Shown: positions 5,549 through 37,525 of the stretch, piece after piece
Layout of the letters: each line of letters starts with the position of its first letter
Position numbering within the stretch: the stretch's first letter is position 1
Source of the DNA: a virus
Lineage: Duplodnaviria > Caudoviricetes
Length of the DNA stretch: 64,000 bases
IMG/VR virus record: IMGVR_UViG_3300028886_000087
Span: 5,559-69,558 of that record
Direction: 5' to 3' (one strand)
Made by a program: the position numbers and the translations under genes
The notes under the pieces: generated by a model
The model's database searches: none
The model's input: only the letters and a program-made list of their open reading frames with translations
What the model was told of the DNA's origin: nothing

Positions 5549-5698
5549 ATGTTAATGATTATATTTGTGCTTTGGGCTATATTCGCTTTGGTTTGTGCCA
5601 TTCTTATTGAGGTTTACGAACATGAGTTCTTTGGTTTTTTGTTCTTGCTGTCACTTCCTCTTATGTTCTATGTGCCGTTTATAGTTGGATTGTTTTAA
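5549..5698 (+). CDS. Small two-helix membrane protein
   Basis: MLMIIFVLWAIFALV...; AAGGAG RBS. Confidence 0.65.
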   Translation: MLMIIFVLWAIFALVCAILIEVYEHEFFGFLFLLSLPLMFYVPFIVGLF

Positions 5699-7798: not shown

Positions 7799-8010
7799 AT
7801 AAGTTCGGAGTTCCTCGGTACTTGGCAACAGAAACCGATTTTTTTATTCCCTCTTCATCAAACATATGTTCGGTCGCGCCCGGGCCGCGATCCGGGTGTC
7901 GTTCCGGTCCAGGTTGACCCGGGCGCGACTTTGTGAAAAAATTAACACGATTGTATGTCAACAAATACAAAAAAGATGTTGACTTTCCTATATAGATTTG
8001 CTATACTTAT

Positions 8011-8345
8011 ATTGTCAAGAGGGAAATCGAGGTAGGAGGTTGGTTCTCAAAAAGATTTTGAGAAAAGTAGAAATTACCTCTTGACAATATCACAGAAATG
8101 TGATACAATATAATTGTCAAGGGGAGATGACGACCATCAAGAGAAATCTCTTCGGAGTGGAAATCCACACGCGTATGATGAGCCTAGAGGAATTTCATAC
8201 GGAGAGGACATCGAAAAAAAATGAAAAACTTTTCAAAACCCCTTGACACTATCACAGAAATGTGATACAATATAATTGTCAAGGGGATAAGGTAGAAACT
8301 TCAACGCGCGCGGAAGGTAATTCGATTGACAAGTTCCCCTTGACA
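8011..8345 (+). ncRNA. Three tandem promoter-driven small hairpin RNA candidates
   Basis: No ORF; closing stems 8011-8022/8078-8089, 8115-8124/8239-8248, 8277-8287/8335-8345. Confidence 0.5.
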
Positions 8346-8432
8346 GAAAAACATAAAAAAACAAAATAAAGTGTTGACAAAATAAAAAATCTATGATATA
8401 ATATAGATACAATAAAGAAAGGAGAAAAGTCA

Positions 8433-8567
8433 ATGAGCATTTACACATTCGCAAATCTCGATACATTCGAACTTTTCACAATCGAAGCGTCAACACTTGA
8501 AGAAGCAAACGAACTCGCTTCAAAGGTATGCGAAAACTTCAAAGTTTTCACAAGAAATTCTAAATAA
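8433..8567 (+). CDS. Hypothetical protein (44 aa)
   Basis: MSIYTFANLDTFELF...; promoter and AAGGAG RBS. Confidence 0.6.
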   Translation: MSIYTFANLDTFELFTIEASTLEEANELASKVCENFKVFTRNSK

Positions 8568-8769
8568 GGTATTGACAGATTGAAAAAAATCTGATACAAT
8601 ATAATCACAACAAAGAGTGCTGACGGTGAGTGAGTAGTCGGCAGTGGAACTTCCTAGGCTCGTCCACTAAAATAAAATTTAAAAAAGGTATTGACAAACA
8701 CTCAAAAGTTTGCTACAATATAATCACAAAGAAAAAACAAAACCCAAGTCAGTAGAAAGGAAAAACACA

Positions 8770-9120
8770 ATGACTAACAGAGAATTTTACACAGCAATCG
8801 TTAATGCTTATGATATTGAGCCAACTGAAACACAGTGGGAAGAACTCAAGGCTTTCGCCACAGACGCAATCGCAAAACTTGATGCACGCAACGCAAAGAG
8901 AGCGTCTACACCTTCCAAGACACAGAAGGAAAACGCACCGCTCATCGAGAAGATTGCTTCGCTTCTCACATCTGAGCCGAAACTCGCAAGCGAACTTGCT
9001 TCGGAAATGGAAATCTCCACACAGAAGGCAAGCGCACTTGTCAAGAAAGTTGAGGGTGTCAGCGTGTGCGATGTCAAGGTAAAGGGCAAAGGCACACAGA
9101 AGGGATACTTCTTCGCATAG
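8770..9120 (+). CDS. Winged-helix DNA-binding protein, paralog 2 of 4
   Basis: MTNREFY...AIAKLDARNAKRA...LASELASEMEISTQKASALVKK...KGKGTQKGYF. Confidence 0.75.
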   Translation: MTNREFYTAIVNAYDIEPTETQWEELKAFATDAIAKLDARNAKRASTPSKTQKENAPLIEKIASLLTSEPKLASELASEMEISTQKASALVKKVEGVSVCDVKVKGKGTQKGYFFA

Positions 9121-9296
9121 CCTAAAGGGGGTTAGCACTCGCTAACCCTTTTTTATTGCGAACATATCGAACATATGTTCGCGCGGGCCGGTCCATTGGT
9201 CCGGTCGATTGTTAAAAAAATAACTTTTAAAAAAGTGTTGACAAATTGAAATAATTTGATTATAATATAAGTGTAATAAGAAAGGAGAATAAAATA

Positions 9297-9479
9297 ATGA
9301 TATATGAGATTAACGTATGTAAAAGAGGTATACAAATTATAGATAAAGAAACATATTATAATATTATAAATAATATAACAAACTATGGAATGATAATTAC
9401 TAATAAAATTGAAACTTCTACAAAATGTCATATTGATATTGAATGGAATCCATATGAAAAATTTTATACTCCACAATAA
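9297..9479 (+). CDS. Hypothetical protein
   Basis: Promoter and AAGGAG RBS. Confidence 0.6.
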   Translation: MIYEINVCKRGIQIIDKETYYNIINNITNYGMIITNKIETSTKCHIDIEWNPYEKFYTPQ

Positions 9480-9692
9480 AATTTTAAAAATTACGTATAC
9501 TCGCGCGATGTCAAGGAAACTTTACATCGCGCGAACTTGTACATAGATTGTTAATAAATTAACAACAAAGTCGACCGGGCGCGATTGTGAATTTTTTCAC
9601 GACGGAAAAAACAAAGAAAAACATAAAAAGGGGTTGACTTCCTTAAACTTATCCTTTATAATAAAGGTACAAAAGGAAAGGAGATTAAGACA

Positions 9693-9830
9693 ATGACATA
9701 CGAAGAAATAATTGATAGACTTGAATTTGCAAAGTTAAGAATTAATAATTGCACTTATTCGCCTGAAACGATTGAAGCAATTGAAATAGCAATTTCTATC
9801 GTCAAAGAAAAACAAGAAAATACAAAATAA
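9693..9830 (+). CDS. Hypothetical protein (45 aa)
   Basis: MTYEEIIDRLEFAK...; promoter and RBS. Confidence 0.6.
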   Translation: MTYEEIIDRLEFAKLRINNCTYSPETIEAIEIAISIVKEKQENTK

Positions 9831-9897
9831 ACTATTGACAAACTCTCATAAATAGTCTATAATATAGATACAAAGAAAGAAAGAGAGGAAAACAGAA

Positions 9898-10332
9898 ATG
9901 ATAAAAATTATCAATCTCGATTGCGACGGAACATTCATCAATCTCTATGGCGTGAATGGTTGGCTCGATGACCTTATCAATGAAGATGTTAGACCATACA
10001 GAGAAGCAAAACCACTTGTAAATCTCGTATGGTTCGCAAGAACAATCCACGAATTGCAGAATAAAGGTTGGAAAGTAAATATCATTTCGTGGACTTCAAA
10101 AAATGGCACAAAAGAATACAATGCAAGAGTTAAACAGACTAAACTTGAATGGTTTGAAACTCATATCCCAAGCGTAAAGTTCGATAATGTTTATATCGTA
10201 GACTACGGAACACCAAAAACATCACTTGCAAAAGGTATTCTGTTTGATGATGAAGAACACAACAGAAACGAATGGAATGGAATAGCATTTGATGAAAAAG
10301 ATTTGATAAAGAAAATGAGAGCCTTTCTGTAA
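9898..10332 (+). CDS. HAD-superfamily phosphatase (5'-nucleotidase-like)
   Basis: Motif I LDCDGT, SWT, K..K, LFDD...N..W. Confidence 0.75.
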   Translation: MIKIINLDCDGTFINLYGVNGWLDDLINEDVRPYREAKPLVNLVWFARTIHELQNKGWKVNIISWTSKNGTKEYNARVKQTKLEWFETHIPSVKFDNVYIVDYGTPKTSLAKGILFDDEEHNRNEWNGIAFDEKDLIKKMRAFL

Positions 10333-10469
10333 AGGTTCTCATTTTTATGTATTTATATACACTGCGGCCGGTCGAACGTGTGTTCGACGTGGCCCGGGCG
10401 CGATTGTTAAAAAAATAACTAATGGAAAAAGTGTTGACAGATTTAGAAATTTTTGCTATACTATAATTG

Positions 10470-10694
10470 TCAAGGGGAGAGATGCCCACGGGAAGTGCCG
10501 AGGCAACCCTCCGAAAAAATCTAGGGTTCAGTATTAGGAAACAACTTTAAGAAACACTCCCCTTGATAAAAACATAAAAAAACATAAAAAAGATATTGAC
10601 ACAAACTAAAAAGTGTGCTACAATATAATTGTCAAGAGGAATAGAAAAGAACAAAATAAAAAAAATTAAAAAAGTTCTAAAAAAGTCTTGACAA
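10470..10694 (+). ncRNA. Two promoter-driven small hairpin RNA candidates
   Basis: Closing stems 10470-10479/10557-10566 and 10629-10637/10686-10694; no ORF. Confidence 0.45.
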
Positions 10695-10760
10695 ACCCAA
10701 ACAAATCAGTTATAATAAAGACACAAGTTAAAAAGTTAAAAAAAGAAAGGAAACAAAATT

Positions 10761-11090
10761 ATGACACAGAGAGATTTCTACAACGCAGTTATCAACGCTA
10801 ACATCAACGAGGAAATGACCTCATTCGCAAGCGAAGCAATCGCAAAACTTGATGCTCGCAACGCAAAGAGAGCAAACACCAAGTCAAAGACACAGATTGC
10901 TAACGAGCCAATCATCGAAGCAATTTCGAGAGTTCTCACAGATGAGCCAATGCTCGCATCGAAGATTGCGGAACTCTGCGAGATTTCAACGCAGAAAGCA
11001 TCGGCACTCGTTAAGAAAGTCGAGGGCGTTCAGTCAGTCGATGTAAAGGTTAAGGGAAAGGGAACGCAGAAAGGATACTTTCTCGCCTAA
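10761..11090 (+). CDS. Winged-helix DNA-binding protein, paralog 3 of 4
   Basis: Highly similar to 8770 (AIAKLDARNAKRA, ISTQKASALVKKVEGV, KGKGTQKGYF). Confidence 0.75.
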   Translation: MTQRDFYNAVINANINEEMTSFASEAIAKLDARNAKRANTKSKTQIANEPIIEAISRVLTDEPMLASKIAELCEISTQKASALVKKVEGVQSVDVKVKGKGTQKGYFLA

Positions 11091-11329
11091 CCTTAAAGCG
11101 TATAGTGGGCACGCATAAGTCCCACCCCACTTAAATGGTTTTCATTTCTTTCACCTCCTTTCAAGAAGAAACGCACGCAAAGTGCGTTTTTTCGTTCGTA
11201 GAAAACGAACATATGTTCGCGCCGGCCCGGGCACGACCGGGCGCGATTGTATGGATTTTAATACAAAGAAAAGTGTTGACTTTTCAAAATAATTGCTTTA
11301 TAATTAGAGTATCAAAGGAGGAAATAAAA

Positions 11330-11710
11330 ATGACTGATACTTTCGAATTAGAGAGAGACATCTATTGGTATCTTGTTGCTCGTAAAAAACTGATGCTTGC
11401 TTCAGATATTGCTTATGATAATGATATAACTACACAGAAAGCATCTGTTGTGTTAAAAAAATTAGTTCGTAATGGAGTTATTAAGGAAATACCTTACAAT
11501 TCTAAAAAATGGTATGGTACAGATGAAGCAGGTTTAAACTTTGGTTGTAGTTTATTTTATGACTATAAAAATAATCCAATTAAGGTTGAGACAATCGTAG
11601 AAAACGAAGATAATGTGGTTGAGTTTGAATTTGAAAACTCTAAAAAATCATACAAAGATAAATTTCTATCACTATTATATAATATAGTTTACGATTATTT
11701 TTACAATTGA
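11330..11710 (+). CDS. Winged-helix-containing hypothetical protein
   Basis: MLASDIAYDNDITTQKASVVLKKLVRNG resembles the HTH of 8770/10761. Confidence 0.6.
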   Translation: MTDTFELERDIYWYLVARKKLMLASDIAYDNDITTQKASVVLKKLVRNGVIKEIPYNSKKWYGTDEAGLNFGCSLFYDYKNNPIKVETIVENEDNVVEFEFENSKKSYKDKFLSLLYNIVYDYFYN

Positions 11711-15502: not shown

Positions 15503-15792
15503 TGACTTCGATGGCGGCTGCGTTCCCACAAATTGAAATTTGAAAAAGTTTCAAAATAGCTTTATAATATATATAGAAAGTGAGAGAGACAATAAAGTAA
15601 AATAAAAGGCTTTCCGCCGAACGTTCTTTCTCACTTTCCCGCAGGATTCAGAAATAAATAATTTGAAAAGTTCTGAAAATTTTGCTATAATATATATAGA
15701 AAGTGAGAGAGAAAAGTAACTTCTCCACCACTATAAAACAACATTCAACGTAACTGGTGCTCACTACCTAGTGTGAGAGAAAGTAGGACAAA

Positions 15793-25616: not shown

Positions 25617-26807
25617 CTATTCAGATGCTTTGAAATTATAAACTGGCTTAATAATACGTTCAACCTCTACTGTATCTCCGATATTCTCCAATATCTCGTT
25701 CATTGATTTATAAGCCATTGGAGACTCATCAAGTGTAGAACGATTAACCGAAGTAGTATAGATACCTTCCATTGAGGCTTCAAAGTCTTCAAGTGATATG
25801 TTCTCTTTTGCCTTTGCTCTGCTCATAAGGCGGCCGGCGCCATGTGGAGCAGAACAATTCCAATCTTCATTACCTTTACCAATGCCAATAATACAACCAT
25901 CGCGCATGTTGATTGGAATTAGTACACGCTCGCCATACTTTGCAGATATAGCACCTTTACGCACCATATTTGTATCATGTTCAATATAGTTATGAATTGT
26001 TTCAAACGATGACACCGGCACCCATTGCATATGACGACAAATTATATCTGCCATCATTGCACGATTGGCTACGGCAAACTCCTGGCATATTTTCATATCA
26101 TGAAGATAGTTAAGTCTATCTTCGCCCTCAAGATAGCTCAATTCTTTTGGAATACCTTTTGCTTTTGGTTTAAAAGTCTTATGCAATTCCTCAATTGCTC
26201 CTGAAATCTCTTTCTCTCTACCTTGAGCTTTAAGTGATTTAATTAACTCTTTCTGCGCGCGGCCTATGTCGTTGACGCCACTGAGATTTTCAATAGCGAC
26301 TTTCTGATAGTAGTCCGCTACTTGTTTTCCGAGGTTACGCGAACCCGAGTGAATAACAAGATATTTATATCCTGCTGTATCCTCATCAATTTCGATGAAG
26401 TGATTACCACCACCAAGTGTACCAAGTGAACATCTAATCCAATCTCTATTTTTTAAATGGTCATAGCAATATAATTGCTTCATTGTTTTAACTGGATAAG
26501 TTGCACCACCATGTACGTTGCGGCCACTTGGTACGTACATACGAATAACTGAATCCAACTTTGCATAGTCAATGTCAATCTGTCCAAGTTCAACTGTCAA
26601 CATGCCGCAGCCGATGTCAACTCCGACGATATTAGGGATAACTTTCTCGCCAAGGTCAGCAGTAAATCCGATGACACAGCCTGCGCCGGCATGAACGTCT
26701 GGCATGATGCGGACTTTGCAGTCGGTAAATGCTGGCTGAGACATGAGGGTATATATTTGAGAAAGAGCCTGTGGCTCGATGTTGTTTGTAAATATTTTGA
26801 GATTCAT
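25617..26807 (-). CDS. rtcB: RtcB RNA 3'-phosphate ligase
   Basis: MPDVHAG, GVDIGCG, LGTLGGGNHFIE, HSGSR, HNY, RKGA, SAPHGAGR, DESP.AYK. Confidence 0.95.
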   Translation of the reverse strand: MNLKIFTNNIEPQALSQIYTLMSQPAFTDCKVRIMPDVHAGAGCVIGFTADLGEKVIPNIVGVDIGCGMLTVELGQIDIDYAKLDSVIRMYVPSGRNVHGGATYPVKTMKQLYCYDHLKNRDWIRCSLGTLGGGNHFIEIDEDTAGYKYLVIHSGSRNLGKQVADYYQKVAIENLSGVNDIGRAQKELIKSLKAQGREKEISGAIEELHKTFKPKAKGIPKELSYLEGEDRLNYLHDMKICQEFAVANRAMMADIICRHMQWVPVSSFETIHNYIEHDTNMVRKGAISAKYGERVLIPINMRDGCIIGIGKGNEDWNCSAPHGAGRLMSRAKAKENISLEDFEASMEGIYTTSVNRSTLDESPMAYKSMNEILENIGDTVEVERIIKPVYNFKASE

Positions 26808-28901: not shown

Positions 28902-28976
28902 TGGAGCTTCGAGCAGGAGTCGAACCCGCAATCTATTCATTACAAGTGAATTGCCTTACCATTCGGCTATCGAAGC
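28902..28976 (-). tRNA. tRNA-Thr(TGT)
   Basis: Cloverleaf, encoded CCA. Confidence 0.9.
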
Positions 28977-29061
28977 ATAAAGTGGAGTTATTCCGGACCT
29001 CCACTAACCCTATATTTTACAAGTGGGGTTATGACTTGATATAATAATTGCAATTATATAC

Positions 29062-29137
29062 TGGCGATTCGTCTTGGACTCGAACCAAGGACCTAGTGGT
29101 TAACAGCCACTTGCTCTACCAGCTGAGCTAACGAACC
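29062..29137 (-). tRNA. tRNA-Asn(GTT)
   Basis: Cloverleaf, CCA. Confidence 0.92.
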
Positions 29138-29230
29138 ATGGGTATGACGCGGGTTCCTGCCGCGTCGCAGGACATATATATGACAGATGTATGCGTCTGC
29201 CGCTGATTTGCCCTCAGCAGTAAAAGCATA

Positions 29231-29304
29231 TGGCTGGCTCACCTAGATTCGAACTAGGGATAACGGAGTCAAAGTCCGTTGAGTTACCGCTACTCCATGA
29301 GCCA
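29231..29304 (-). tRNA. tRNA-Gln(TTG)
   Basis: Cloverleaf, CCA. Confidence 0.92.
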
Positions 29305-29490
29305 ATATATTCTATAGCTTTCCACCCATTCTACGGTACTCTTTACATCTTTCCGAAATTATCGTGAGCGGCCTTCTCACATTGATATTGTTGTATCACA
29401 GCCACTGACTGCTGCTCGTGACCTGGGACTTCAGGCGGTGGTCTCATAGAAGTTGACTAGTACGTTCTATGTTGCATTGCTATAGATAAA

Positions 29491-29566
<76 letters not shown>

Positions 29567-29580
29567 TCAACAAAATTATA

Positions 29581-29672
29581 TGGACACGGAAGTTTGACTT
29601 GCACAAACTTCTCTAGGTATTTCACCTTACAACTCTTGCGGAGTGTGTTTTACTACATAAACTATTCCGTGT
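29581..29672 (-). ncRNA. Atypical tRNA-like RNA
   Basis: 7-bp acceptor, D arm, variable arm, T-like arm, CCA; no 7-nt anticodon loop. Confidence 0.55.
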
Positions 29673-29679
29673 TAACGCG

Positions 29680-30380
29680 TGAGAGTTTGAGCGTGCTACT
29701 CACAAGCAGCAGAGATTTGTTACCTAGGATTCGCTGAATCTGCCACAACGGACTTCCCACCGTAGAGCTTTACTTCACCCTACTTCGAAGTCTAAAAGGC
29801 CCAACCGTTGTTAGTGCAGACTTGGGTCTCTGCATTCGCCAACCGTTGTTTGTGCGGACTTGGCTCTCCGCAGAGGCATATTTTGATAACCCAGACTTCT
29901 ATGCAAACTGGAGGATTTATCGCAGGTGCCATCGGTGAAGTTCTCCCATTCACATGGGGTAGGCATTTATATCGCGGCTTACCATACTCTCCGCTTTCTA
30001 CGGTGCCGCCGCAGAACGACAGATTCATTTAACGCCAACAAACCTGCAAAGCACGCTTCTTTTATACAGTATGTTCTGTGCCACATTTCTTTCAACGCAT
30101 CGTGCCAGGTGCTACCTGGGTCGGGTTGAAATGCGGCCCCTGTGGCGGGTGCAGGGTTTTTAAATTAGCCGCTAGGTTTTCCATCCTAGCCGAGTTTCGT
30201 TTTTTAAAGTCGAGCCACTCTCCACGACTATATACTACTCTCATTTAATTTGGACTGAAGTGCCGGCGTTCCCGTGGTAGCTACGGACGTACTTCCTGGT
30301 TTTACTTACTATCCCGCCCTTGCCTTGGCGGTTCAGTTGACATAGATATTATAGTCGACTTGTCGCTGTATCATCCCGAC
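29680..30380 (-). ncRNA. ORF-poor structured RNA block
   Basis: Many hairpins; tandem 38-nt repeat with compensatory stem change. Confidence 0.4.
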
Positions 30381-30382
30381 TT

Positions 30383-30439
30383 TGGACAAAGTGGGAGTCG
30401 AACCCACACGCCTTACGATGCGTCCACGTTCATTTGTCC
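30383..30439 (-). ncRNA. Minimal tRNA-like RNA (no D arm)
   Basis: GGACAAA/TTTGTCC acceptor, GTGGG-TTCGACT-CCCAC T arm. Confidence 0.55.
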
Positions 30440-30454
30440 GCTTTTGACAGACCA

Positions 30455-30679
30455 CTACATGGCTAAAACTCTTGTGATGAAATCGCTTTCATCTTGAATA
30501 AGGTTATACGGGCTGTATTCGCCGTATGCTTCCATGTCTGAAACCGTGAGGATCTGCACTCCTCTGTCCAGCGTCTTTCTTCCCAGATAGGAAACGAGCG
30601 CAGAAAGAGTCTTGTCTCTCTCGGCTTCGATTGCCAAGCAGCCACGTTCGTCAAATTTCTTTGCTATTAAGTAGCACAT
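30455..30679 (-). CDS. DUF6718-like host-type protein
   Basis: MCYLIAK...GC.A...GVQILT.S...AYGEY.PY; family name from memory. Confidence 0.55.
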   Translation of the reverse strand: MCYLIAKKFDERGCLAIEAERDKTLSALVSYLGRKTLDRGVQILTVSDMEAYGEYSPYNLIQDESDFITRVLAM

Positions 30680-30870
30680 TTCTGCATCTCCTTTCTGAAA
30701 GATTCCTCATCCTTTATGACGCCTTGTTCGTACAGGTCTCTTAGGTGACGGCCAACACTTGCGTCTTCAATGTACTTGTAGACGTATATGTGCAGCCATT
30801 CATTGAATTGTCTGTCGAACGGAGTAAGTATGTAAGGTGGTGGTGATTCGCTATGAGAGATGACGTATTT
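30669..30870 (-). pseudogene. 5'-truncated reading frame upstream of the DUF6718-like gene
   Basis: Open frame SGKYVISHSESPPPYILTPFDRQF...KEMQKCAT with an upstream in-frame stop and no start codon. Confidence 0.35.
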
Positions 30871-31142
30871 ACCACTCTTTTATTCTCTCTTCTTACCTTA
30901 CATATATATTATAGCAAGCATTTTAGAATTTTTCAAATTATTTTTTGTAGTGTTTATTGAAATAACGCCATTTAGCAATTAACACACCGGCGAACCCTAC
31001 ACAGATAAGAACATCAATCATAATACAATCCTCCTATGTATACGTCCTACGTATTCTGCGGCGGGTCGCATATGTCGCGACATATAGTCTGTGTATGTCG
31101 AAACATATGCGACCGCCCGCAGAGTACATAGGTCACAACCAT

Positions 31143-31230
31143 TGGTGCGAGTGGAGGGCCACGATCCCTCAATCCCACACTGGGCACAGGTTTTTAGGAC
31201 CTGTGTGTATACCAATTCCACCACACTCGC
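31143..31230 (-). tRNA. tRNA-Leu(TAA)
   Basis: Long variable arm; loop CCTAAAA; atypical T loop. Confidence 0.85.
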
Positions 31231-31576
31231 ATAAGCGGGCGATTTCTCGCCCATGGACGTATTCCAGTTCGGCCCTCGTTCAGCCAAAGAGCCTTATTTT
31301 TTTCCTTTTAAAGTCTGGAGCTGACCTGGACTCAGCCGTCTATACGTACTCGGCGGCCGCGCTATCAAAGTTGCGAACTTAGTAGGATAGATATTACTCT
31401 ATGACATTAAGTGTCCCTACAACTACGACAGGTTTATCCGATTTCTCCTCTTGATAAATCGCCTCGTCACCAGCAAAGCGTCAACTTTCCTCACAGTATG
31501 ACCTATCGGCGCGGTATACATTCTGCAGTTATATACTTGCCTCATCTGTCTGGTATTGAAAGAATTTATATAACAT

Positions 31577-32180
31577 CTATTTTCTAATAGATGTAATATC
31601 ATCTTTAAATTTAGCAATTCTTGGAGCCAAGACATTGCCAAGATTACCACTTAAATAATCTTTAGCTACATCATTTATTATATCTTCATACTGCTCGTCA
31701 AATCTTTCTTCATATTCATCACGTCGCATAAACACCACATCATTACGGTCTGCGTAATGTTCAGAAAACTCATAATTAAGAATAAGAAATTTTTCCTCAT
31801 AAGATAACATAACTATATAGCCTTCATCAAGTAAGGCTTTAGCTACATCAAATCCTCTTTCATAATCTGTAAAAGCAAGTTCATTCTTCATAAGTATTTT
31901 CCTCACTCTTCTCTTCATAGTCTTTCCAATAGAGCATATCAAGATAATCTCTATGACCAAAAACTACGTTATTTGAGTCGGCAAACTTGAGATTACTTAC
32001 ATCTCCACCATATACCCATTCAATTTTATAGGTATCACCGATATCTCCACCGCTCATCAAAACAACATATCCATTGGATATGAGTATTTTCTGAATAGTA
32101 GATGCATCTTCATAGGATAATTGAAGATGACCCGATGCACCATGATATAAATGTTCATAAAGTTCTTGCTCTGTAAACAT
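31577..32180 (-). CDS. Two related hypothetical proteins (31577-31891, 31881-32180)
   Basis: Both have (LL/LI)..GY(I/V)V(M/L).S and D.N.VVF motifs. Confidence 0.7.
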
Positions 32181-32246
32181 AGATAATTTTCCTTTCTTAT
32201 CTTATACTATAATTATATAATAATTTTTCAGAAAATTCAAATTATA

Positions 32247-32324
32247 TGGGTCCAACGACAGGACTCTAACCTGCAATTACTGGAATCACAATCCAGCGTG
32301 TCTAACAATTCCACCACGTTGGAC
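32247..32324 (-). tRNA. tRNA-His(GTG)
   Basis: G-1:C73, CCA. Confidence 0.9.
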
Positions 32325-32328
32325 ATAA

Positions 32329-32406
32329 TGGAGAGTAGAGACGGATTCGAACCGCCGTATAACAGGGTTGCAGCCTGCTCCCTTAGCCAGACTTGGGTAT
32401 CTACTC
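32329..32406 (-). tRNA. tRNA-Cys(GCA)
   Basis: Cloverleaf, CCA. Confidence 0.9.
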
Positions 32407-32409
32407 ATA

Positions 32410-33235
32410 AATAAAAAAGTCTCCGAAGAGACTAGAGCTGAGACATTTGACTCTTTTACATACCTTCTCTTGTGGTTGGACACAAGTTGTCACACAGACG
32501 ATTAATCTGTAGGTACGACTGACACCAGTTTCAGTGGCTACTGGCAAACTCTTACTCTATGTTTTTATAGATTTCTTTTCATCACATGCTCGCTTGCGGC
32601 GTTAGGAGATTGCGGTCTCTTAGCGTTGCAACTACTCAATACTCTCTCACACTTCGTCTTGCGAACTCGGCGCGCGTCCATATTTCAGAACGATAAGTCA
32701 GTTTTCAACATAGAGTCGCATACACTTTTGCTTTAATTTATACTATAGGATTTGAACCTACGCTCTATAGTCCCTCTGGCTATTGCTTTCCCAAACTAAG
32801 CTAAGTATATGCTTTTGGACGATGGGGTATGCGTTTGAACATCCGTATCTTTTGAATACGGCCCATTCGCCACCGCCCTGCTCGTTCTTTGGAAAGAACT
32901 ACTTCTCCCTTTCACACCTATCTTTCGATTTAAGACGCTACTTTGTTCGATGAACCCAACACTTGTGTCTCCCAACACTCGCATCGAAGAACCAATAGTG
33001 CTATCCCCAGATTTCTCCGCTGAACACCACGCCGCCCGCGTGATATTTACTCATCATAGGTCTCAGCAGTTGCCCTCGACCCTTAGTAGAGCATAAGCAT
33101 TATCTATTGGTTTTCTGATGAACTCCTTTCGAAGTCGCAACCGCATTGACTTGCGATTACTTTATCCGTATTACTACGCTTATCTATCGACCCGAAACCA
33201 GCCGAAAAGTTTTTAGATTTCTCTCTCAACTTTCT
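32410..33235 (-). ncRNA. About 820-nt ORF-free transcription unit (structured ncRNA candidate) containing a degenerate tRNA at 32736-32810
   Basis: Promoter -35 33265-33270, -10 33242-33247; UUCG terminator 32411-32433. Confidence 0.55.
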
Positions 33236-33284
33236 ATATTAATTATATATAAATTTTAAAACTTTTTCAAATTTTAAGTTTCAA

Positions 33285-33360
33285 TGGCGCGCCCTGAACG
33301 AATTGCACGCTCGTCTCAACGCTTTGGAGGCGCGGATTCTTCTAATTAAACTAAGGGCGT
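33285..33360 (-). tRNA. tRNA-Trp(CCA)
   Basis: Cloverleaf, atypical T loop TGCAATT. Confidence 0.8.
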
Positions 33361-33364
33361 ATAA

Positions 33365-33440
33365 TGGTGGACCAACAAGGACTTGAACCTTGAACCGTCG
33401 GTTTATGAGACCGATGCACTAACCATTGTGCTATTGGTCC
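33365..33440 (-). tRNA. tRNA-Met/Ile2(CAT)
   Basis: GGACC acceptor resembles Ile2. Confidence 0.88.
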
Positions 33441-33443
33441 ATA

Positions 33444-33519
33444 TGGTGCTTAGAGTTAGAGTTGAACTAACGACCACTCGGGCTTCAACCGAGCGCTCTA
33501 CCAGCTGAGCTATCTAAGC
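33444..33519 (-). tRNA. tRNA-Phe(GAA)
   Basis: Cloverleaf, CCA. Confidence 0.92.
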
Positions 33520-33522
33520 ACA

Positions 33523-33607
33523 TGGTCGGAAGGGTTGGACTCGAACCAACGATGTTTCTGTGTCAGGGTTTTACAGACCCCTACCCTCGCCGCTAGGTGA
33601 CCTTCCG
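33523..33607 (-). tRNA. tRNA-Tyr(GTA)
   Basis: Long variable arm, CCA. Confidence 0.9.
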
Positions 33608-33755
33608 ATAAACAGTTAGGCAGCTACCCTTACGCATACTGTTAAATACGGATAGTTCTTTATACAGAAAACTACTATCAACATAAAGACTGGTACTATC
33701 GTGTCACGTCCTACGCCGGATTTTTCAGCTACGGGGTATCCGGAATCTACCCAAA

Positions 33756-33830
33756 TGGTATCCCGCCGCAGAATCGAACTGCGATTAATGGTTTAGAAGA
33801 CCATTATTCTATCCGTTGAACTAACAGGAC
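33756..33830 (-). tRNA. tRNA-Arg(TCT)
   Basis: Cloverleaf, CCA. Confidence 0.9.
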
Positions 33831-33833
33831 ATA

Positions 33834-33910
33834 TGGTGTACCAGAAGGGACTTGAACCCTCATCTTTCTGCTTGCAAGGCAGACGCTTTCCCAAATTAAG
33901 CTACCAGCAC
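33834..33910 (-). tRNA. tRNA-Ala(TGC)
   Basis: G3:U70, CCA. Confidence 0.88.
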
Positions 33911-34018
33911 ATAAATAAGAGGGTCGGCATGGATTATATATTATATAGTATACATCAAATATATAATACACCGTCGCGTTCTAATGACATGCAGTTCTTA
34001 TACTTCATCCCTCTTAAA

Positions 34019-34094
34019 TGGTACACGATACAGGCTCCGCCCCTGTGACCTCTAGTTTGTAAGACTAGCGTTCTCCTAACTGAACTAATCGTGC
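34019..34094 (-). tRNA. tRNA-Val(TAC)
   Basis: Atypical T loop GGCGGAG, CCA. Confidence 0.85.
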
Positions 34095-34097
34095 ATA

Positions 34098-34174
34098 TGG
34101 TACACCCTCTTGGATTTGAACCAAGCACCTCTGCGTTATCAGCACAGTGCTCTAACCTAATGAGCTAAGGGTGC
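34098..34174 (-). tRNA. tRNA-Ile(GAT)
   Basis: Cloverleaf, CCA. Confidence 0.92.
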
Positions 34175-34178
34175 ATAT

Positions 34179-34255
34179 TGGTGGGTCACTTCGGATTCGA
34201 ACCGAAACTTTATAGGGTTTGAGCCTACTTCCTCTACCGATTGGGATAGTAACCC
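34179..34255 (-). tRNA. tRNA-Leu(CAA), short variable arm
   Basis: Cloverleaf, CCA. Confidence 0.85.
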
Positions 34256-34429
34256 ATAAATTTCCAGACGCCAATCTGGAAATTAAACCTAACTTGTTGG
34301 CGCAAATTAAGTCTTTCGTGTTATTTCGGGAAACACCGAAAGTTATCTACCTTGGTAGCGTCACTTTCAAAACCCGCTAGCGCTAACCAGCATATGGTTT
34401 CACTCCTCTCAGCTACTAATATATGCAGA

Positions 34430-34507
34430 TGGTGGGTCACCTGGGATTTGAACCCAGACTGTCATGGTTCTTAGCCATGTTTCTCTACCAAATTGGAATA
34501 GTAACCC
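34430..34507 (-). tRNA. tRNA-Leu(AAG), short variable arm
   Basis: CATGG-CTAAGAA-CCATG. Confidence 0.85.
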
Positions 34508-34510
34508 TTA

Positions 34511-34586
34511 TGGCTGGCGAGAACAAGATTCGAACTTGTTACTATTCGGGAGCGACCCTAGTCTCTACCAATTGGACTACTCGCCA
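34511..34586 (-). tRNA. tRNA-like RNA with irregular anticodon arm (Gln-type acceptor)
   Basis: Good acceptor, D and T arms; anticodon arm TAGGG-TCGCT-CCCGA. Confidence 0.6.
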
Positions 34587-34591
34587 ATAAA

Positions 34592-34666
34592 TGGCATCCC
34601 ATGAAGGATTCAAACCCTCGATTCGCGGTCCGTAGCCGCGCGGTTTATTCACTAGCCTAATGGGAT
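34592..34666 (-). tRNA. tRNA-Arg(ACG)
   Basis: Cloverleaf, CCA. Confidence 0.88.
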
Positions 34667-34669
34667 ATA

Positions 34670-34784
34670 TAGTGCACGCTGAGGTACTGCCCCTCTATTT
34701 TTATATTACCTACTAATATATAAGTAGCCTAGGCTTATATACTTTCAGAAGTCATTTGACTTTCCATCTAATACTGGACGTGCA
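34670..34784 (-). ncRNA. Atypical tRNA-like RNA with expanded interior
   Basis: TGCACGT/GCGTGCA acceptor, GAGG-GGCAGTA-CCTC T-like arm. Confidence 0.4.
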
Positions 34785-34804
34785 TCAATTTGGTGCAAAC
34801 TGAA

Positions 34805-35596
34805 CTATAAATCTGCCCATTCTTCATCTGTGTATTTTTTAATTTCTGAACGTCTACGAGGTAAATTAAGATTATCGCACCATTTACGAATCGCATTATC
34901 AGTAAGATTAAATTGTTTACCTATATCTGTAAAGGTTCTGGTACGAATCATTTCTTTTAATTCATCTCTGGTAACTGGTAAAGTTTTTATAAAATTTATT
35001 TTACGTTGTTGATTATAACATGCTTGGCAATATTCATTACGTACACCTATTAATTTTCCACATATAGGACAAGCTTTTTTGCCAGCACAAACATTACCAG
35101 TTATATATGTACGAGAACGTAGTGGATATTCTAAATCTTCCATTACCCATATTAAACCACGATTAATCTGACTAATAGTAACTTGAGATACGCCATATTT
35201 ATCTCCAATCTCAGTCTGTGACAAAGTAGTATTTAATAACAATTGTTGAATTTCTTCTACATCTGTATAAGAAAGATAGTGCGGATAAGTATTTTGACCG
35301 CCTAATGTCATATTATAACCCTGACAATCTTTAAAACCCAAATAACTCTTATAGTGTTTAATCCAATATTTTTCTCGATTATTTAACTCATTTTTAGAAC
35401 ATTCTTCAATAATTTCAAATTTAAAGTTTTCTAAACCATATTTCCGAATTGCTTTATAAAATACACAATTATAATCCTGTCCACAATTGTTTAAAGAATG
35501 ACTACGATGTATTCGCCATCTTTGAGCAATATTATCAGATTGTCCTATATAAACTTTATTATTGATTAAGTTAGTAACTTTATAAATTCCTATCAT
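34805..35596 (-). CDS. GIY-YIG homing endonuclease (Seg-like) inside tRNA cluster
   Basis: GIYKVTN...KVYIGQS...RW..H; C-terminal HTH and Zn motifs. Confidence 0.9.
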   Translation of the reverse strand: MIGIYKVTNLINNKVYIGQSDNIAQRWRIHRSHSLNNCGQDYNCVFYKAIRKYGLENFKFEIIEECSKNELNNREKYWIKHYKSYLGFKDCQGYNMTLGGQNTYPHYLSYTDVEEIQQLLLNTTLSQTEIGDKYGVSQVTISQINRGLIWVMEDLEYPLRSRTYITGNVCAGKKACPICGKLIGVRNEYCQACYNQQRKINFIKTLPVTRDELKEMIRTRTFTDIGKQFNLTDNAIRKWCDNLNLPRRRSEIKKYTDEEWADL

Positions 35597-35673
35597 ACCT
35601 TTCTCCTTTATTATCTTTGTTCTATATATAAGTAACATTTTAAATAATAAAGTATGTAAGTTTGGTTCAAAAA

Positions 35674-35747
35674 TGGTGAGACCAGGCCGAGTTGAACGGC
35701 CATAAGTAAATTAAAAGTTTACTGTTCTACCCTTAAACTATGGTCCC
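35674..35747 (-). tRNA. tRNA-Lys(TTT)
   Basis: Cloverleaf, CCA. Confidence 0.88.
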
Positions 35748-35752
35748 ATATA

Positions 35753-35838
35753 TGGCCGAGCGCCAGAGAATCGAACTCTGTAGGCTGTCACGCCATCCGG
35801 GTTTTCAAGACCCGTTCCTAACCATTCGGGTACGCTCG
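35753..35838 (-). tRNA. tRNA-Ser(TGA)
   Basis: Long variable arm, CCA. Confidence 0.9.
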
Positions 35839-35840
35839 AT

Positions 35841-35914
35841 TGGAGTATCGTATGGGATTTGAACCCATGACCACGGTTTGGAAGACCGTGATGTTGCCGC
35901 TACACTAACGATAC
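35841..35914 (-). tRNA. tRNA-Gly(TCC)
   Basis: Cloverleaf, CCA. Confidence 0.92.
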
Positions 35915-35915
35915 A

Positions 35916-35991
35916 TGGAGCAGTAAATGGGTCTCGAACCCATGGCCTCCACCTTGGCAAGGTGGCGTTCTACCTACTGAACTACTACTGC
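35916..35991 (-). tRNA. tRNA-Gly(GCC)
   Basis: Cloverleaf, CCA. Confidence 0.92.
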
Positions 35992-35993
35992 AT

Positions 35994-36067
35994 TGGTGCG
36001 GGAAGGGGGAGTCGAACCCCCAATGCGTGGTCCCAAACCACGCCGTTTACCGCTAGCTTACACCCAC
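35994..36067 (-). tRNA. tRNA-Pro(TGG)
   Basis: Cloverleaf, CCA. Confidence 0.9.
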
Positions 36068-36072
36068 ATAAT

Positions 36073-36149
36073 TGGTACCGGAGGTCAGATTCGAACTGAC
36101 ACTGAATAGTTCCTAAGACTATCGCCTCCTGCCGTTGGGCTACTCCGGC
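36073..36149 (-). tRNA. tRNA-Leu(TAG), short variable arm
   Basis: Cloverleaf, CCA. Confidence 0.88.
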
Positions 36150-36154
36150 ATAAA

Positions 36155-36229
36155 TGGCGGTCTATAAGGGAGTTGAACCCTTGTCTCTCGGCTGACAACC
36201 GAATATAATAACCGTTATACTAATAGACC
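36155..36229 (-). tRNA. tRNA-Asp(GTC)
   Basis: Cloverleaf, CCA. Confidence 0.9.
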
Positions 36230-36232
36230 ATG

Positions 36233-36306
36233 TGGTAGGGATACTGGGAATCGAACCCAAGTGAACTGATTAAGAGTCAGCCATTCTACCGCTGAATTAT
36301 ATCCCT
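36233..36306 (-). tRNA. tRNA-Lys(CTT)
   Basis: Cloverleaf, CCA. Confidence 0.9.
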
Positions 36307-36311
36307 ATATT

Positions 36312-36386
36312 TGGTAATCGCACAGAGAGTCGAACTCTGATTTATAGACTGAGAATCTATTGTCCTAACCATTAGACGATGCGACC
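36312..36386 (-). tRNA. tRNA-Glu(CTC)
   Basis: Cloverleaf, CCA. Confidence 0.9.
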
Positions 36387-36390
36387 ATAT

Positions 36391-36467
36391 TGGTGATGGT
36401 ACTGGGGTTTGAACCCAGACTCTTCGGCGTGAAGGGCCGACGTGTTAGCCAATTCCACTATACCACC
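36391..36467 (-). tRNA. tRNA-Glu(TTC)
   Basis: Cloverleaf; loop CCTTCAC (C33). Confidence 0.88.
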
Positions 36468-36845
36468 ACATTTAAAAAGCGGTATTACCCACTTTGAGTA
36501 ATACCGCTTATACACTACCTTTATAGAAAATAATGCTAAATCGGTATTACCCTTTTATCCCTACCATAAAATTTTCCTGTAATAGGGGCGCATGAAACCA
36601 GGCTATCTATGATAACCTCTTCGACTCTATTCAGATTCCATGCGAACGACTTAAACATTATTTTTTCTCCTTTGTATTTGCTTGTATTTTTAAGTGGATT
36701 TTTTTAATATCCTCTCTTTAACTTTCTATATATATTATAAAAGAATTTTTAAAAAATTTCAAATTATTAGTTAATAAGTCAAAACTTATCTAATAGAGTA
36801 ACACTCTCTTATATCTGAATTATTTTCTGTTCCATTGACTACCTC

Positions 36846-37400
36846 TTACATAGTAGAATATGAAATGTTATTAGCAGTAGTTAATGTATAGCTAGGTGTT
36901 GTATAAAGTATGTTCATAGTATTATTAGTACAGAAGAAAATACCTTCACCCGCATCAAGTACTCTACTTGCAATATCTTGGTACAAAGTAGAACACATAC
37001 CATGGGCATCAGAAAGACTATCATTGTAGTATTGAACAACTTCTTTCTTAAAAATTACATAAGTAATTGGATTAGTCATTACTCCTTCAATTGTCACAAT
37101 TTCATCAACAATTGGATTGCCGCGGAATAAGTCTTCATAAATTGATGCTCTCGTACTCTTTGCTTTCTTAAACGTAGGGTTCGCTGGAATTACATTAATT
37201 TGAACAATTACACCACCAAACTCCTTTTCTGTTGGTAATACTGCGGCCATTGCATCAGCCTTTGCAGTGTTCTCTACATAGATGTTAATGATTTGTTCAT
37301 CGGTATCATATACAATACGAACTTCACTATCATGCTTAAATAACTCACACAGTTCCTTGTAGTAAATCTGCCATGGAGCAGACAGCTTTAAAATTGCCAT
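36846..37400 (-). CDS. Conserved phage hypothetical protein
   Basis: LSAPW..YY.EL..LF..D...YVVF.KEVVQY.ND.L.D..G..STLYQDIA. Confidence 0.8.
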   Translation of the reverse strand: MAILKLSAPWQIYYKELCELFKHDSEVRIVYDTDEQIINIYVENTAKADAMAAVLPTEKEFGGVIVQINVIPANPTFKKAKSTRASIYEDLFRGNPIVDEIVTIEGVMTNPITYVIFKKEVVQYYNDSLSDAHGMCSTLYQDIASRVLDAGEGIFFCTNNTMNILYTTPSYTLTTANNISYSTM

Positions 37401-37439
37401 AAAAACTTTTCTCCTTTAATCCCTTTAATATAACTAGCT

Positions 37440-37525
37440 TGGCCGAGTAACTGAGAATCGAACTCAGACAACCTCTCGGTTGGCCGCATTAGCAGTGCGG
37501 TGCGATACCATTACGCCATTACTCG
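37440..37525 (-). tRNA. tRNA-Ser(GCT)
   Basis: Long variable arm, CCA. Confidence 0.92.

Follow-up and report, generated by a model that had tools for sequence, protein, structure and literature searches.

Candidate 5′-clamped leader modules in the early promoter stacks of an uncultured cattle-gut phage

The strong promoters stacked in the early region of one uncultured phage from the cattle gut are separated by short non-coding stretches. What are these stretches, and what would become of the RNAs that start in them? We address this question in a window of 64,000 nucleotides (positions 5,559 to 69,558 of IMG/VR record IMGVR_UViG_3300028886_000087), which is the whole stretch of DNA analysed, and in related contigs. 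A first-pass annotation had read the stretches as a family of early small RNAs whose 5′ ends pair with the −35 region of the next promoter. We favour, with a probability of roughly one half, a reading in which they are self-closing 'clamped' non-coding modules, or 5′-clamped leaders, that fill tandem early promoter stacks ahead of winged-helix genes.

Non-coding units between stacked promoters

The promoters of both stacks are of the sigma-70 type, close to consensus and preceded by an AT-rich region (Table 1). The + strand of the window carries five copies of the motif ATTGTCAAGRGG, each of them 5 nt past a −10 box, against an expectation of 0.00 (100 shuffles of the window, none expected). 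Counting all matches in the window gives six, namely the five unit starts and the complementary arm of unit 1. The motif CCYCTTGAYA is matched 10 times in the window versus 0.39 expected. Every one of the five ATTGTCAAGRGG units is free of ORFs, 69–138 nt long and closed by the complement CCYCTTGAYA. These units were identified by direct reading of the sequence together with folding, which confirmed the first-pass description of five ORF-free units that start after a −10 box and end in the complement; the stem extensions given for individual units (GAGG/CCTC, GGGG/CCCC, GGGGA/TCCCC and GGGGAG/CTCCCC) are likewise as claimed. The predicted folds of the units are branched. Transcription start sites were inferred from promoter geometry: in every unit the 5′ arm begins 5–6 nt past the −10 hexamer, and it does so too in independently found homologues of unit 2.

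Table 1 Promoters, units and genes of the two stacks and of a third site in the window
Feature	Position	Strand	Details
Promoter 1, stack A	7979..8007	+	TTGACT-17-TATACT, TG-extended −10
Unit 1, clamped module	8011..8089	+	helix 8011–8022 with 8077–8088, 12 bp, z −4.4
Promoter 2, stack A	8081..8109	+	−35 TTGACA within unit 1 3′ arm
Unit 2	8113..8250	+	helix 8115–8124 with 8239–8248, 10 bp, z −5.5
Promoter 3, stack A	8243..8271	+	−35 within unit 2 3′ arm
Unit 3, clamped module	8275..8347	+	helix 8277–8287 with 8335–8345, 11 bp, z −2.8
Promoter 4, stack A	8374..8402	+	12/12 consensus
Two more promoters	8572..8719	+	8572–8600 and 8691–8719; flank an ORF-free 90-nt spacer without a terminal helix
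Winged-helix gene 1	8770..9120	+	116 aa, MTNREFYT...
Promoter 1, stack B	10434..10462	+	
Unit 4, clamped module	10466..10568	+	helix 10468–10479 with 10557–10568, 12 bp including one G·U, z −2.7
Promoter 2, stack B	10596..10624	+	
Unit 5, A-rich clamped module	10628..10696	+	helix 10629–10637 with 10686–10694, 9 bp, z −4.4
Promoter 3, stack B	10688..10716	+	12/12 consensus; −35 within unit 5 3′ arm
Winged-helix gene 2	10761..11090	+	109 aa, MTQRDFYN...
Same principle, other sequence	15540..15691	+	two promoters, 15540–15568 and 15663–15691; common start ATATATAGAAAGTGAGAGAGA

The interior of unit 1 combines a conserved GGAGG block with a covarying hairpin (8044–8064). The 3′ arm of unit 4 has CTTGATA at its end, which gives rise to the G·U pair, and unit 5 is A-rich filler with the weakest helix of the five. 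The 3′ arm supplies the next −35 in units 1, 2 and 5 only. The pairing of the 5′ end with the next −35, as originally proposed, therefore holds for these three units and fails for units 3 and 4, where about 29 nt separate the 3′ arm from the next promoter; in unit 3 this arm offers no working −35 and A-tracts come next. Over 46 distinct single units, the next −35 falls within the 3′ arm in 35, and a promoter lies 23–35 nt downstream in 10 of the 11 others. Palindromic promoter spacers are frequent.

Promoter 4 of stack A leads into an ordinary A-rich leader and ribosome-binding site, then a 44-aa ORF (8433–8567). Two further stretches had been put forward as related units. That at 15576–15638 embodies the same principle in another sequence: the first transcript of this site has a 14-bp closing helix (z −4.1). 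The stretch at 8610–8672 does not: the region 8606–8675 has no terminal helix and is no more structured than its shuffles (z −0.41), and it therefore falls outside this unit class.

Covariation between unit ends

Copies of the cassette occur in 48 phage contigs of IMG/VR, and several contigs from MAGs and metagenomes carry it as well. Contigs of relatives with 90–99% identity are also present in an RNA-labelled run (X24) and in three other runs. Neither the DNA nor the winged-helix protein led to a cultured relative in the phage collection.

Of the 126 TGTCAAG starts that lie close to a promoter in 49 loci, 72 are matched by a perfect complement of at least 8 nt within 320 nt, compared with 0 of 126 in a reverse-only control. 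The helix spans 58–257 nt across units. Position 8 covaries between the unit ends (A:T 35, G:C 20, G:T 6, A:C 4; Fisher p = 5e-8), and the unit 1 family exhibits a compensatory change (GAGG/CCTC versus GGGG/CCCC). For the unit 2 family, 97.1% of cells are paired and the covariation score is 0.214, a value matched by 0 of 500 shuffles (slid controls, 0.02–0.09). Covariation in homologues, to which the first-pass annotation had pointed as a check, is thus present both within units and within homologous families. The variant arms TATCAAGGGGAGAGG/CCTCTCCCCTTGA and TGTCAAAGGGAGAAC/GTTCTCCCTTTAGACA retain their pairing even though the 3′ arm has lost its −35 role. Consistent pairing is also predicted by folding, with a mean pairing probability of 0.82 for the first 10 nt of clamped transcripts (n = 62) versus 0.33 for other promoters in the same loci (n = 536; p = 2e-29). 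The 82 homologous matches between unit interiors are all same-strand, the inverted matches being internal hairpins only. This fixed orientation, together with the G·U pairs, indicates that the pairing takes place in + strand RNA and not in DNA.

That conclusion bears on a reading in which the arms (CTTGACAA/TTGTCAAG) act as DNA, whether as winged-helix operators, as cruciforms or as PeSL-like recombination ends, and RNA pairing plays no role. The arrays do lie upstream of genes for winged-helix proteins, which have a DNA-binding fold, the promoter spacers are often palindromic, and modules are shuffled among relatives with joints at promoters, as in PeSLs (PMC2839356). We nevertheless consider a DNA-level role very unlikely. 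Covariation joins unit ends that lie 60–250 nt apart and is not seen between the two arms around one promoter, of which 10 of 23 pairs are Watson–Crick; the + strand accommodates G·U pairs, pairing persists after −35 function has been lost, interiors are never inverted, and loops of 45–230 nt are implausible for cruciforms. The first-pass suggestion of cruciforms that couple tandem promoters fails for the same reasons, given loops of 45–115 nt, arms flanking a single promoter that do not covary, and the tolerated G·U pairs.

Several other candidates were rejected. An inversion switch between the inverted arms is at odds with the finding of no inverted interiors, and a promoter-flanking palindrome as the selected unit with covariation that runs within units and not across promoters. 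Integron attC sites, CRISPR repeat mimics, retron msr-msd and type III antitoxin repeats were considered and set aside, as the core motifs, direct repeats or partner genes that mark such systems were not seen.

Predicted transcription into the winged-helix genes

Terminator-like sites are absent from 7979–8770 and 10434–10760. No terminator follows any of the 46 distinct single units, where A-rich sequence or promoter spacer is found and there is no T-run. The first terminator of stack A lies 3′ of winged-helix gene 1 (hairpin 9129–9148, T-run 9149–9154). With no terminator and another promoter directly after each unit, transcription must continue into the winged-helix gene.

A winged-helix gene with the start MTxREF... 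lies downstream of the arrays in nearly all loci. The AlphaFold2 model of the winged-helix gene 2 product (pLDDT 91) is a MarR/PadR-like winged helix. A fold search with the winged-helix protein returned generic MarR/PadR/ArsR-type matches only (E above 0.02), pointing to no specific function, and comparison with Pfam and PHROGs gave nothing above threshold. For an abundant homologue of the winged-helix protein, a single short contig was recovered.

The helices might alternatively be processing or insulation sites, cut by a nuclease that acts on double strands, for instance host RNase III, which would strip off the leaders of all upstream promoters and produce uniform mRNA 5′ ends. Leader processing that generates a common mRNA 5′ end is known from the T7 R0.3 site and the SP82 early RNA sites, and an RNase III site is a double-stranded stem of roughly two helical turns. 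The phage helices are suitably placed, since each stack has them right at its last promoter or immediately ahead of it, and B. subtilis scRNA is reported to be processed by RNase III (PMC1935012). At 9–13 bp, however, the helices are short for RNase III, and the contig (about 57% complete) carries no RNase III gene. We regard this reading as improbable.

Interchangeable interiors

The unit interiors are interchangeable non-coding cassettes. Their distribution among relatives is mosaic, with many joints at promoters in the run contigs, and modules appear from these sequences to be exchanged between phages. The longest ORF of the units has a median length of 22 aa. In unit 4, a 1-nt indel in a 97%-identical homologue disrupts the sole ATG frame. 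The unit 2 family is taken to be non-coding because its ATG is missing in 8 of 12 homologues. A unit 2 micro-ORF (MTTIKRNLFG...) is open in three homologues and was rejected, as most of the 12 homologues lack the ATG and the conserved 3′ block is not kept in one frame.

The unit 2 family, a structured RNA of about 135–145 nt that occurs in 12 versions with covarying hairpins, is absent from Rfam 15 and constitutes a new candidate structured RNA family (about 140 nt). A T-loop family present in several contigs has GGGTTCRAATCCC and a hairpin with a GACG loop, and in L038 a tRNA-like gene occupies the equivalent slot. No Rfam family was detected in units of the window or relatives at gathering or E-value thresholds, the Rfam 6S models did not match the units even at E ≤ 5, and neither ARAGORN nor Rfam RF00005 identified a cloverleaf in units of the window or relatives, T-loop units included. 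The idea that the units carry a duplex TTGACA as a promoter mimic was abandoned, because the helix would be A-form RNA and no 6S-like family of Rfam was matched. Overall the interiors are weakly structured (mean z −0.7), and their folding shows no strand preference; given the weak structure, selection may in many units act on the helix alone. As for interior hairpins, to which the first-pass annotation had drawn attention, some covary as well.

These features are relevant to the proposal that the units are stand-alone, trans-acting small RNAs, serving as host-takeover factors or anti-defence decoys, expressed in a common scaffold of early promoter and terminal helix, and freed from read-through precursors by an endonuclease or by 3′ trimming back to that helix. 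Each unit has its own near-consensus promoter, and terminal helices of 10–13 bp are characteristic of stable RNAs. The covarying hairpins of the 12 unit 2 versions, which share no conserved ORF, the recurrence of the T-loop family, the tRNA-like gene in the L038 slot and a swapping of modules between phages that resembles the behaviour of accessory genes all fit this proposal. It does not account for the lack of a terminator or other defined 3′-end mechanism, for units such as unit 5 that are A-rich filler, or for the average interior being barely above shuffles in structure. The units also keep close company with a single family of downstream genes and hold fixed places in the stack; in relatives the unit 1 family comes first in 9 of 9 cases and the unit 5 family last in 7 of 7. 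We view stand-alone small RNAs as possible but somewhat doubtful. What stands of the original small-RNA claim is the RNA helix and the promoter-driven non-coding units, whereas discrete RNAs of 60–135 nt would have to arise despite the missing terminators and the promoters that follow.

A pure leader role, for its part, leaves the diversity of the interiors unexplained, as well as the conserved covarying interiors and the tRNA-like gene of L038. A speculative reading, which we think rather unlikely, is that the stacks are hypervariable 'RNA islands' of a gut phage clade, in which a standard scaffold, made up of a consensus promoter and a terminal helix that draws on the next −35 box, presents swappable small structured RNAs at the very start of infection, with the winged-helix proteins as partners or regulators. 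Such islands, if real, would be to RNA what anti-defence or host-takeover gene islands are to proteins.

A model for clamped leader modules

Under the clamped-leader reading, host RNA polymerase would transcribe each module from its own near-consensus promoter, and RNA nucleotides 1 to 10–13 (UGUCAAGRGG...) would pair with the last 10–13 nt of the module (...CCYCUUGACA). The 3′ strand doubles as the −35 hexamer of the next promoter in about three quarters of the modules, which would explain why the 5′ arm must read TGTCAA. The helix would be located at, or 1–3 nt from, the 5′ triphosphate end, and would therefore be expected to hide this end from 5′-end-dependent decay (RppH, RNase J1). It would also fold each inter-promoter segment into a domain of its own, so that upstream read-through leaders would be stable and the downstream ribosome-binding site undisturbed. 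Modules whose interiors are conserved and structured, those of the unit 2 and T-loop families, may also be cut back to the helix and survive as small stable RNAs.

A stabilising effect of the helix is proposed by analogy with other systems. Bacterial mRNAs are protected from 5′-end-dependent decay by 5′-terminal pairing and by 5′/3′ pairing (PMC3997798, PMC7509114, PMC5737220). In the ompA and ermC leaders, STAB-SD, the SP82 polypurine stabiliser and the B. subtilis hbs 5′/3′-UTR interaction, a 5′-end structure or bound ribosome blocks decay; the phage helix is predicted to start at about +1. Like these stabilisers, the phage 5′ region is purine-rich and Shine-Dalgarno-like, and the unit 1 family retains a GGAGG block. 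Unlike them, the phage helix has a partner strand 60–250 nt away that doubles as the next −35 box, and the closed segment, for which stabilisation would be the presumed outcome, is a swappable non-coding cassette of which there are two or three per stack.

The stacks share with T4-type PeSLs (PMC2839356, PMC4122927) repeated near-consensus early promoters, AT-rich upstream tracts and a hyperplastic early region, and the phage cassettes differ among close relatives in a manner consistent with recombination at conserved promoter parts. In PeSLs the stem-loops are local GC hairpins, serve as terminators and flank ORFan genes, whose shuffling they mediate, whereas the phage helix spans an entire non-coding cassette and is no terminator. 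The T7 promoters A1, A2 and A3 are tandem early promoters whose processed leader contains the R0.3 RNase III site. The phage arrangement is similar in having several strong host-type promoters about 100–160 bp apart that feed one early transcript, and differs in that there is no long RNase III hairpin and the inter-promoter RNA closes on itself via the next −35 box. The paired 5′ and 3′ ends of the units recall tRNA, 6S RNA and bacterial Y RNA, and some modules have a tRNA-type T-loop hairpin. 6S RNA is a rod of about 180–200 nt with a central bubble. In contrast to these RNAs, the phage units have no Rfam match, cloverleaf, 6S-type rod with a central bubble or defined 3′ end.

The organisation amounts to a compact design rule: a single hexamer is the −35 box of a promoter and, at the same time, the 3′ strand of the terminal helix that closes the RNA before it, which forces each transcript to start with TGTCAA. 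To our knowledge, this rule has no earlier description. The modules represent a widespread and testable class of early non-coding elements in uncultured gut phages. Should the helix prove to stabilise or insulate leaders, it would be a natural part for promoter stacking; should modules be released, they would amount to a large and so far unexplored reservoir of small RNAs in phages. The 5′ arm is also seen, in related contigs and MAGs, as a short local 5′ hairpin with the ribosome-binding site directly after it.

Paired unit ends between stacked promoters

Direct reading and folding recovered all five ORF-free units proposed in the first-pass annotation, units 1–3 (stack A) preceding winged-helix gene 1 and units 4 and 5 (stack B) preceding winged-helix gene 2. 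The entire contig has exactly five + strand copies of ATTGTCAAG, each 5 nt past a −10 hexamer; the chance expectation for the 12-mer ATTGTCAAGRGG is 0.00, and CCYCTTGAYA is seen 10 times against 0.39 expected. As had been claimed, the start of each unit (5′ arm, TGTCAAG...) meets its exact complement at the unit end (3′ arm, ...CTTGAYA), giving terminal helices of 12, 10, 11, 12 and 9 bp, and entire units fold with z-scores of −2.7 to −5.5. The claim that the 3′ arm doubles as the next −35 region stands except for units 3 and 4, where about 29 nt, with phased A-tracts, separate the 3′ arm from the next promoter. A further promoter comes after every distinct unit: in 35 of 46 its −35 box shares bases with the 3′ arm, and in 10 of the other 11 the promoter is 23–35 nt downstream. 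Two related units had also been put forward: the upstream one has no terminal helix (z −0.41) and was discarded, and the downstream one is a true analogue of other sequence, set between two promoters with a common start sequence.

Judged by their sequence, the units are non-coding. The longest frame per unit has a median of 22 codons, and unit 4 is separated from a 97%-identical homologue by a 1-nt indel. A reading frame in unit 2 was rejected, its ATG being missing in most homologues (AGAGACG, AGTGACG, ACTGACG) and the frame being out of step at the conserved 3′ block.

Positions of features in the window
Feature	Position	Strand	Remark
Early region	3.9–14.3 kb	+
GC-rich palindromic elements	7860-7935, 9165-9215, 10355-10410		upstream of promoter modules
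Unit 1	8011-8089	+	stack A
Unit 2	8113-8250	+	stack A
Unit 3	8275-8347	+	stack A
Promoter spacers	8081-8109, 8243-8271, 8572-8600, 9238-9266		often palindromes
Discarded related unit	8606-8675		proposed near 8610-8672
Winged-helix gene 1	8770-9120
Earliest terminator	9129-9154		hairpin and T-run, behind winged-helix gene 1
Unit 4	10466-10568	+	stack B
Unit 5	10628-10696	+	stack B
Winged-helix gene 2	10761-11090
Further winged-helix family member	11135-11710
Related unit	15576-15638
RtcB-type RNA ligase gene	25617-26807	−	Pfam E = 9.5e-57; adjoins tRNA block
tRNA genes (n = 30)	28902-37525	−
Promoter and 76-nt RNA	30829-30936	−	within tRNA region
ROOL RNA, full-length	41774-42369	−	Rfam RF03087, 290.9 bits

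The arms pair within a unit

Covariation of the arms was scored at position 8 in 67 distinct units, with the first downstream CTTGAYA taken as the partner. Pairs within units were A:T 35, G:C 20, G:T 6 and A:C 4 (odds ratio 29, p = 5e-8), whereas of 23 pairs of arms flanking one and the same promoter only 10 were Watson–Crick at this position. The 5′ arm therefore has its partner at the opposite end of the unit it belongs to and not across the promoter. Arm extensions, described earlier as covarying per unit, also do so within the unit 1 family (GAGG/CCTC in six sequences, GGGG/CCCC in one), in which the inner hairpin covaries too. Covariation in homologues, a check set beforehand, was found in the unit 2 family: in 12 distinct members, taken from contigs of viral and metagenome origin, 97.1% of cells are paired and the covariation score is 0.214, a value reached by 0 of 500 shuffles, with slid controls at 0.02–0.09. 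Variant arms still pair where TTGACA is lost from the 3′ arm, and G·U is tolerated, both in unit 4, which ends in CTTGATA, and in 10 of 12 sequences of the unit 2 family, where it closes the inner hairpin. Interior homologies are same-strand in 82 cases and inverted relative to the promoter in none.

Three tests (covarying arms, compensatory changes and orientation) thus agree and point to pairing of the arms in the + strand RNA. The same results are at odds with cruciforms coupling tandem promoters, an earlier suggestion that entails loops of 45–230 nt, and with a simple protein operator; we regard a role of the arms at the DNA level as unlikely. The predicted pairing probability of the first 10 nt averages 0.82 for transcripts from the TGTCAAG promoter class and 0.33 for other promoters in the same loci.

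A constant framework with exchanged interiors

The 21-nt pattern of −10 box plus arm matches 48 IMG/VR contigs (up to 190 kb) and 21 MAG contigs. A perfect complement of at least 8 nt lies within 320 nt of 72 of 126 promoter-proximal TGTCAAG starts, against 0 of 126 in a reverse-only control. Unit interiors form about 40 unrelated sequence groups of 58–257 nt, and the units of the window are spread mosaically among relatives (unit 1 in 6 loci, unit 2 in 2, unit 3 in 1, unit 4 in 2 and unit 5 in 12). This spread, together with the many promoter-to-promoter joints in contigs of public runs, indicates that modules are exchanged while the promoter-and-arm framework stays constant. Modules keep to set positions: the unit 1 family, which has a conserved GGAGG block, comes first in the stack in 9/9 cases, the A-rich unit 5 family is last in 7/7, and T-loop modules are usually last.

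The units belong to no Rfam family. They evolve in a similar way to the PeSL cassettes of T4-type phages but fall outside the PeSL definition (PMC2839356), because the cassettes lack an ORF and their helix does not serve as a local terminator. A limited literature search found no description of a transcript 5′ end pairing with the next promoter's −35 box.

The stacks lie ahead of winged-helix genes in an early region

About 25 near-consensus TTGACA-17-TATAAT promoters, most followed by an A-rich leader with a strong ribosome-binding site and then a small ORF, mark a typical early region driven by host polymerase. No terminator-like site was found within either stack. Stacks nearly always precede one gene family of 105–117 aa (MTxREF..., KLDARNAKR...), with several paralogs per phage, and the same family lies behind the stacks of relatives and of more distant, GC-richer contigs found via unit 2 alone. 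Metagenomes yielded over 1,100 homologues of the winged-helix protein, for which no Pfam family was found; its confident model (pLDDT 91) has a generic MarR/PadR-like fold.

The contig (69.6 kb, about 57% complete, 64 kb of it in the window) also carries baseplate and lectin-type genes. Its DNA is present in bovine gut metagenomes, and the phage collection searched contained no cultured phage resembling it.

A proposed role as clamped leaders

What selection would maintain in every case is the burial of the 5′ end of a transcript begun at an upstream stack promoter, in a helix that closes off the stretch between promoters. Since another promoter has to come immediately afterwards, its −35 box and the few bases before it are the least costly strand to pair with, a choice that would fix the RNA start as TGTCAAG plus the covarying extension. 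5′-end-dependent decay and 5′ stabilisers are described in Firmicutes (PMC3997798, PMC7509114, PMC5737220). By analogy, the helix should protect the triphosphate end and hold the leader apart from the downstream ribosome-binding site. In its working the design would resemble a T7-style stack of tandem promoters joined to a 5′-terminal stabiliser. At the end of each stack, the final promoter has an ordinary A-rich leader with an early ribosome-binding site and needs no helix.

We give this clamped-leader reading a probability of roughly 0.5. It leaves unexplained the conserved structured interiors and a tRNA-like gene in the equivalent slot of one relative's stack (L038). That some modules are released as stable small RNAs is a tentative alternative; cleavage at the helices seems unlikely.

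Related clamps and palindromes

Within the tRNA region, a TTGAAA-17-TATAAT promoter precedes a 76-nt ORF-free RNA whose 5′-terminal bases, TATGTAAGGT, pair with the 3′-terminal ACCTTACATA, in what its sequence suggests is another +1-anchored terminal helix. The palindromic promoter spacers differ per promoter (ATCACAgaaaTGTGAT, CAGATTgaaaaaAATCTG, CAAATTgaaatAATTTG; in relatives, for example, ACAAGAtgaaagTCTTGT) and could form a hairpin in read-through RNA or be a protein site. The GC-rich palindromic elements (CCCGGGCGCG, GGCCGG and similar) are accompanied by a CGAACATATGTTCG-type box.

One clamped module that recurs (L011:3384-3471 (−), L011:1738-1825 (−), L018:453-575 (−), L032 near 13582, L075 and L078) has a tRNA-type T-arm (GGGTTCRAATCCC) and, after it, a hairpin with a GACG loop and a covarying stem (GTGAG/CTCAC, TGACG/CGTCA, CAGAG/CTCTG). 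Neither Rfam nor ARAGORN recognises these modules as tRNA. The L038 gene (12307-12418 (−), 112 nt; 37 bits against Rfam tRNA) fills the third slot in its promoter stack, directly 3′ of the −10 box, where other phages hold clamped modules. Both in Lachnospiraceae-type MAGs and in other contigs, the 5′ arm pairs locally, in a short hairpin just ahead of a ribosome-binding site. Five Clostridia/Lachnospiraceae MAG contigs (L068, L071, L079, L080, L083), probably other phages or prophages with a 5′-hairpin version of the clamp, share the promoter and ATTGTCAAGAGGG start with a local partner, TGACAAT, 15–20 nt on, forming a short 5′ hairpin directly upstream of a ribosome-binding site and ORF.
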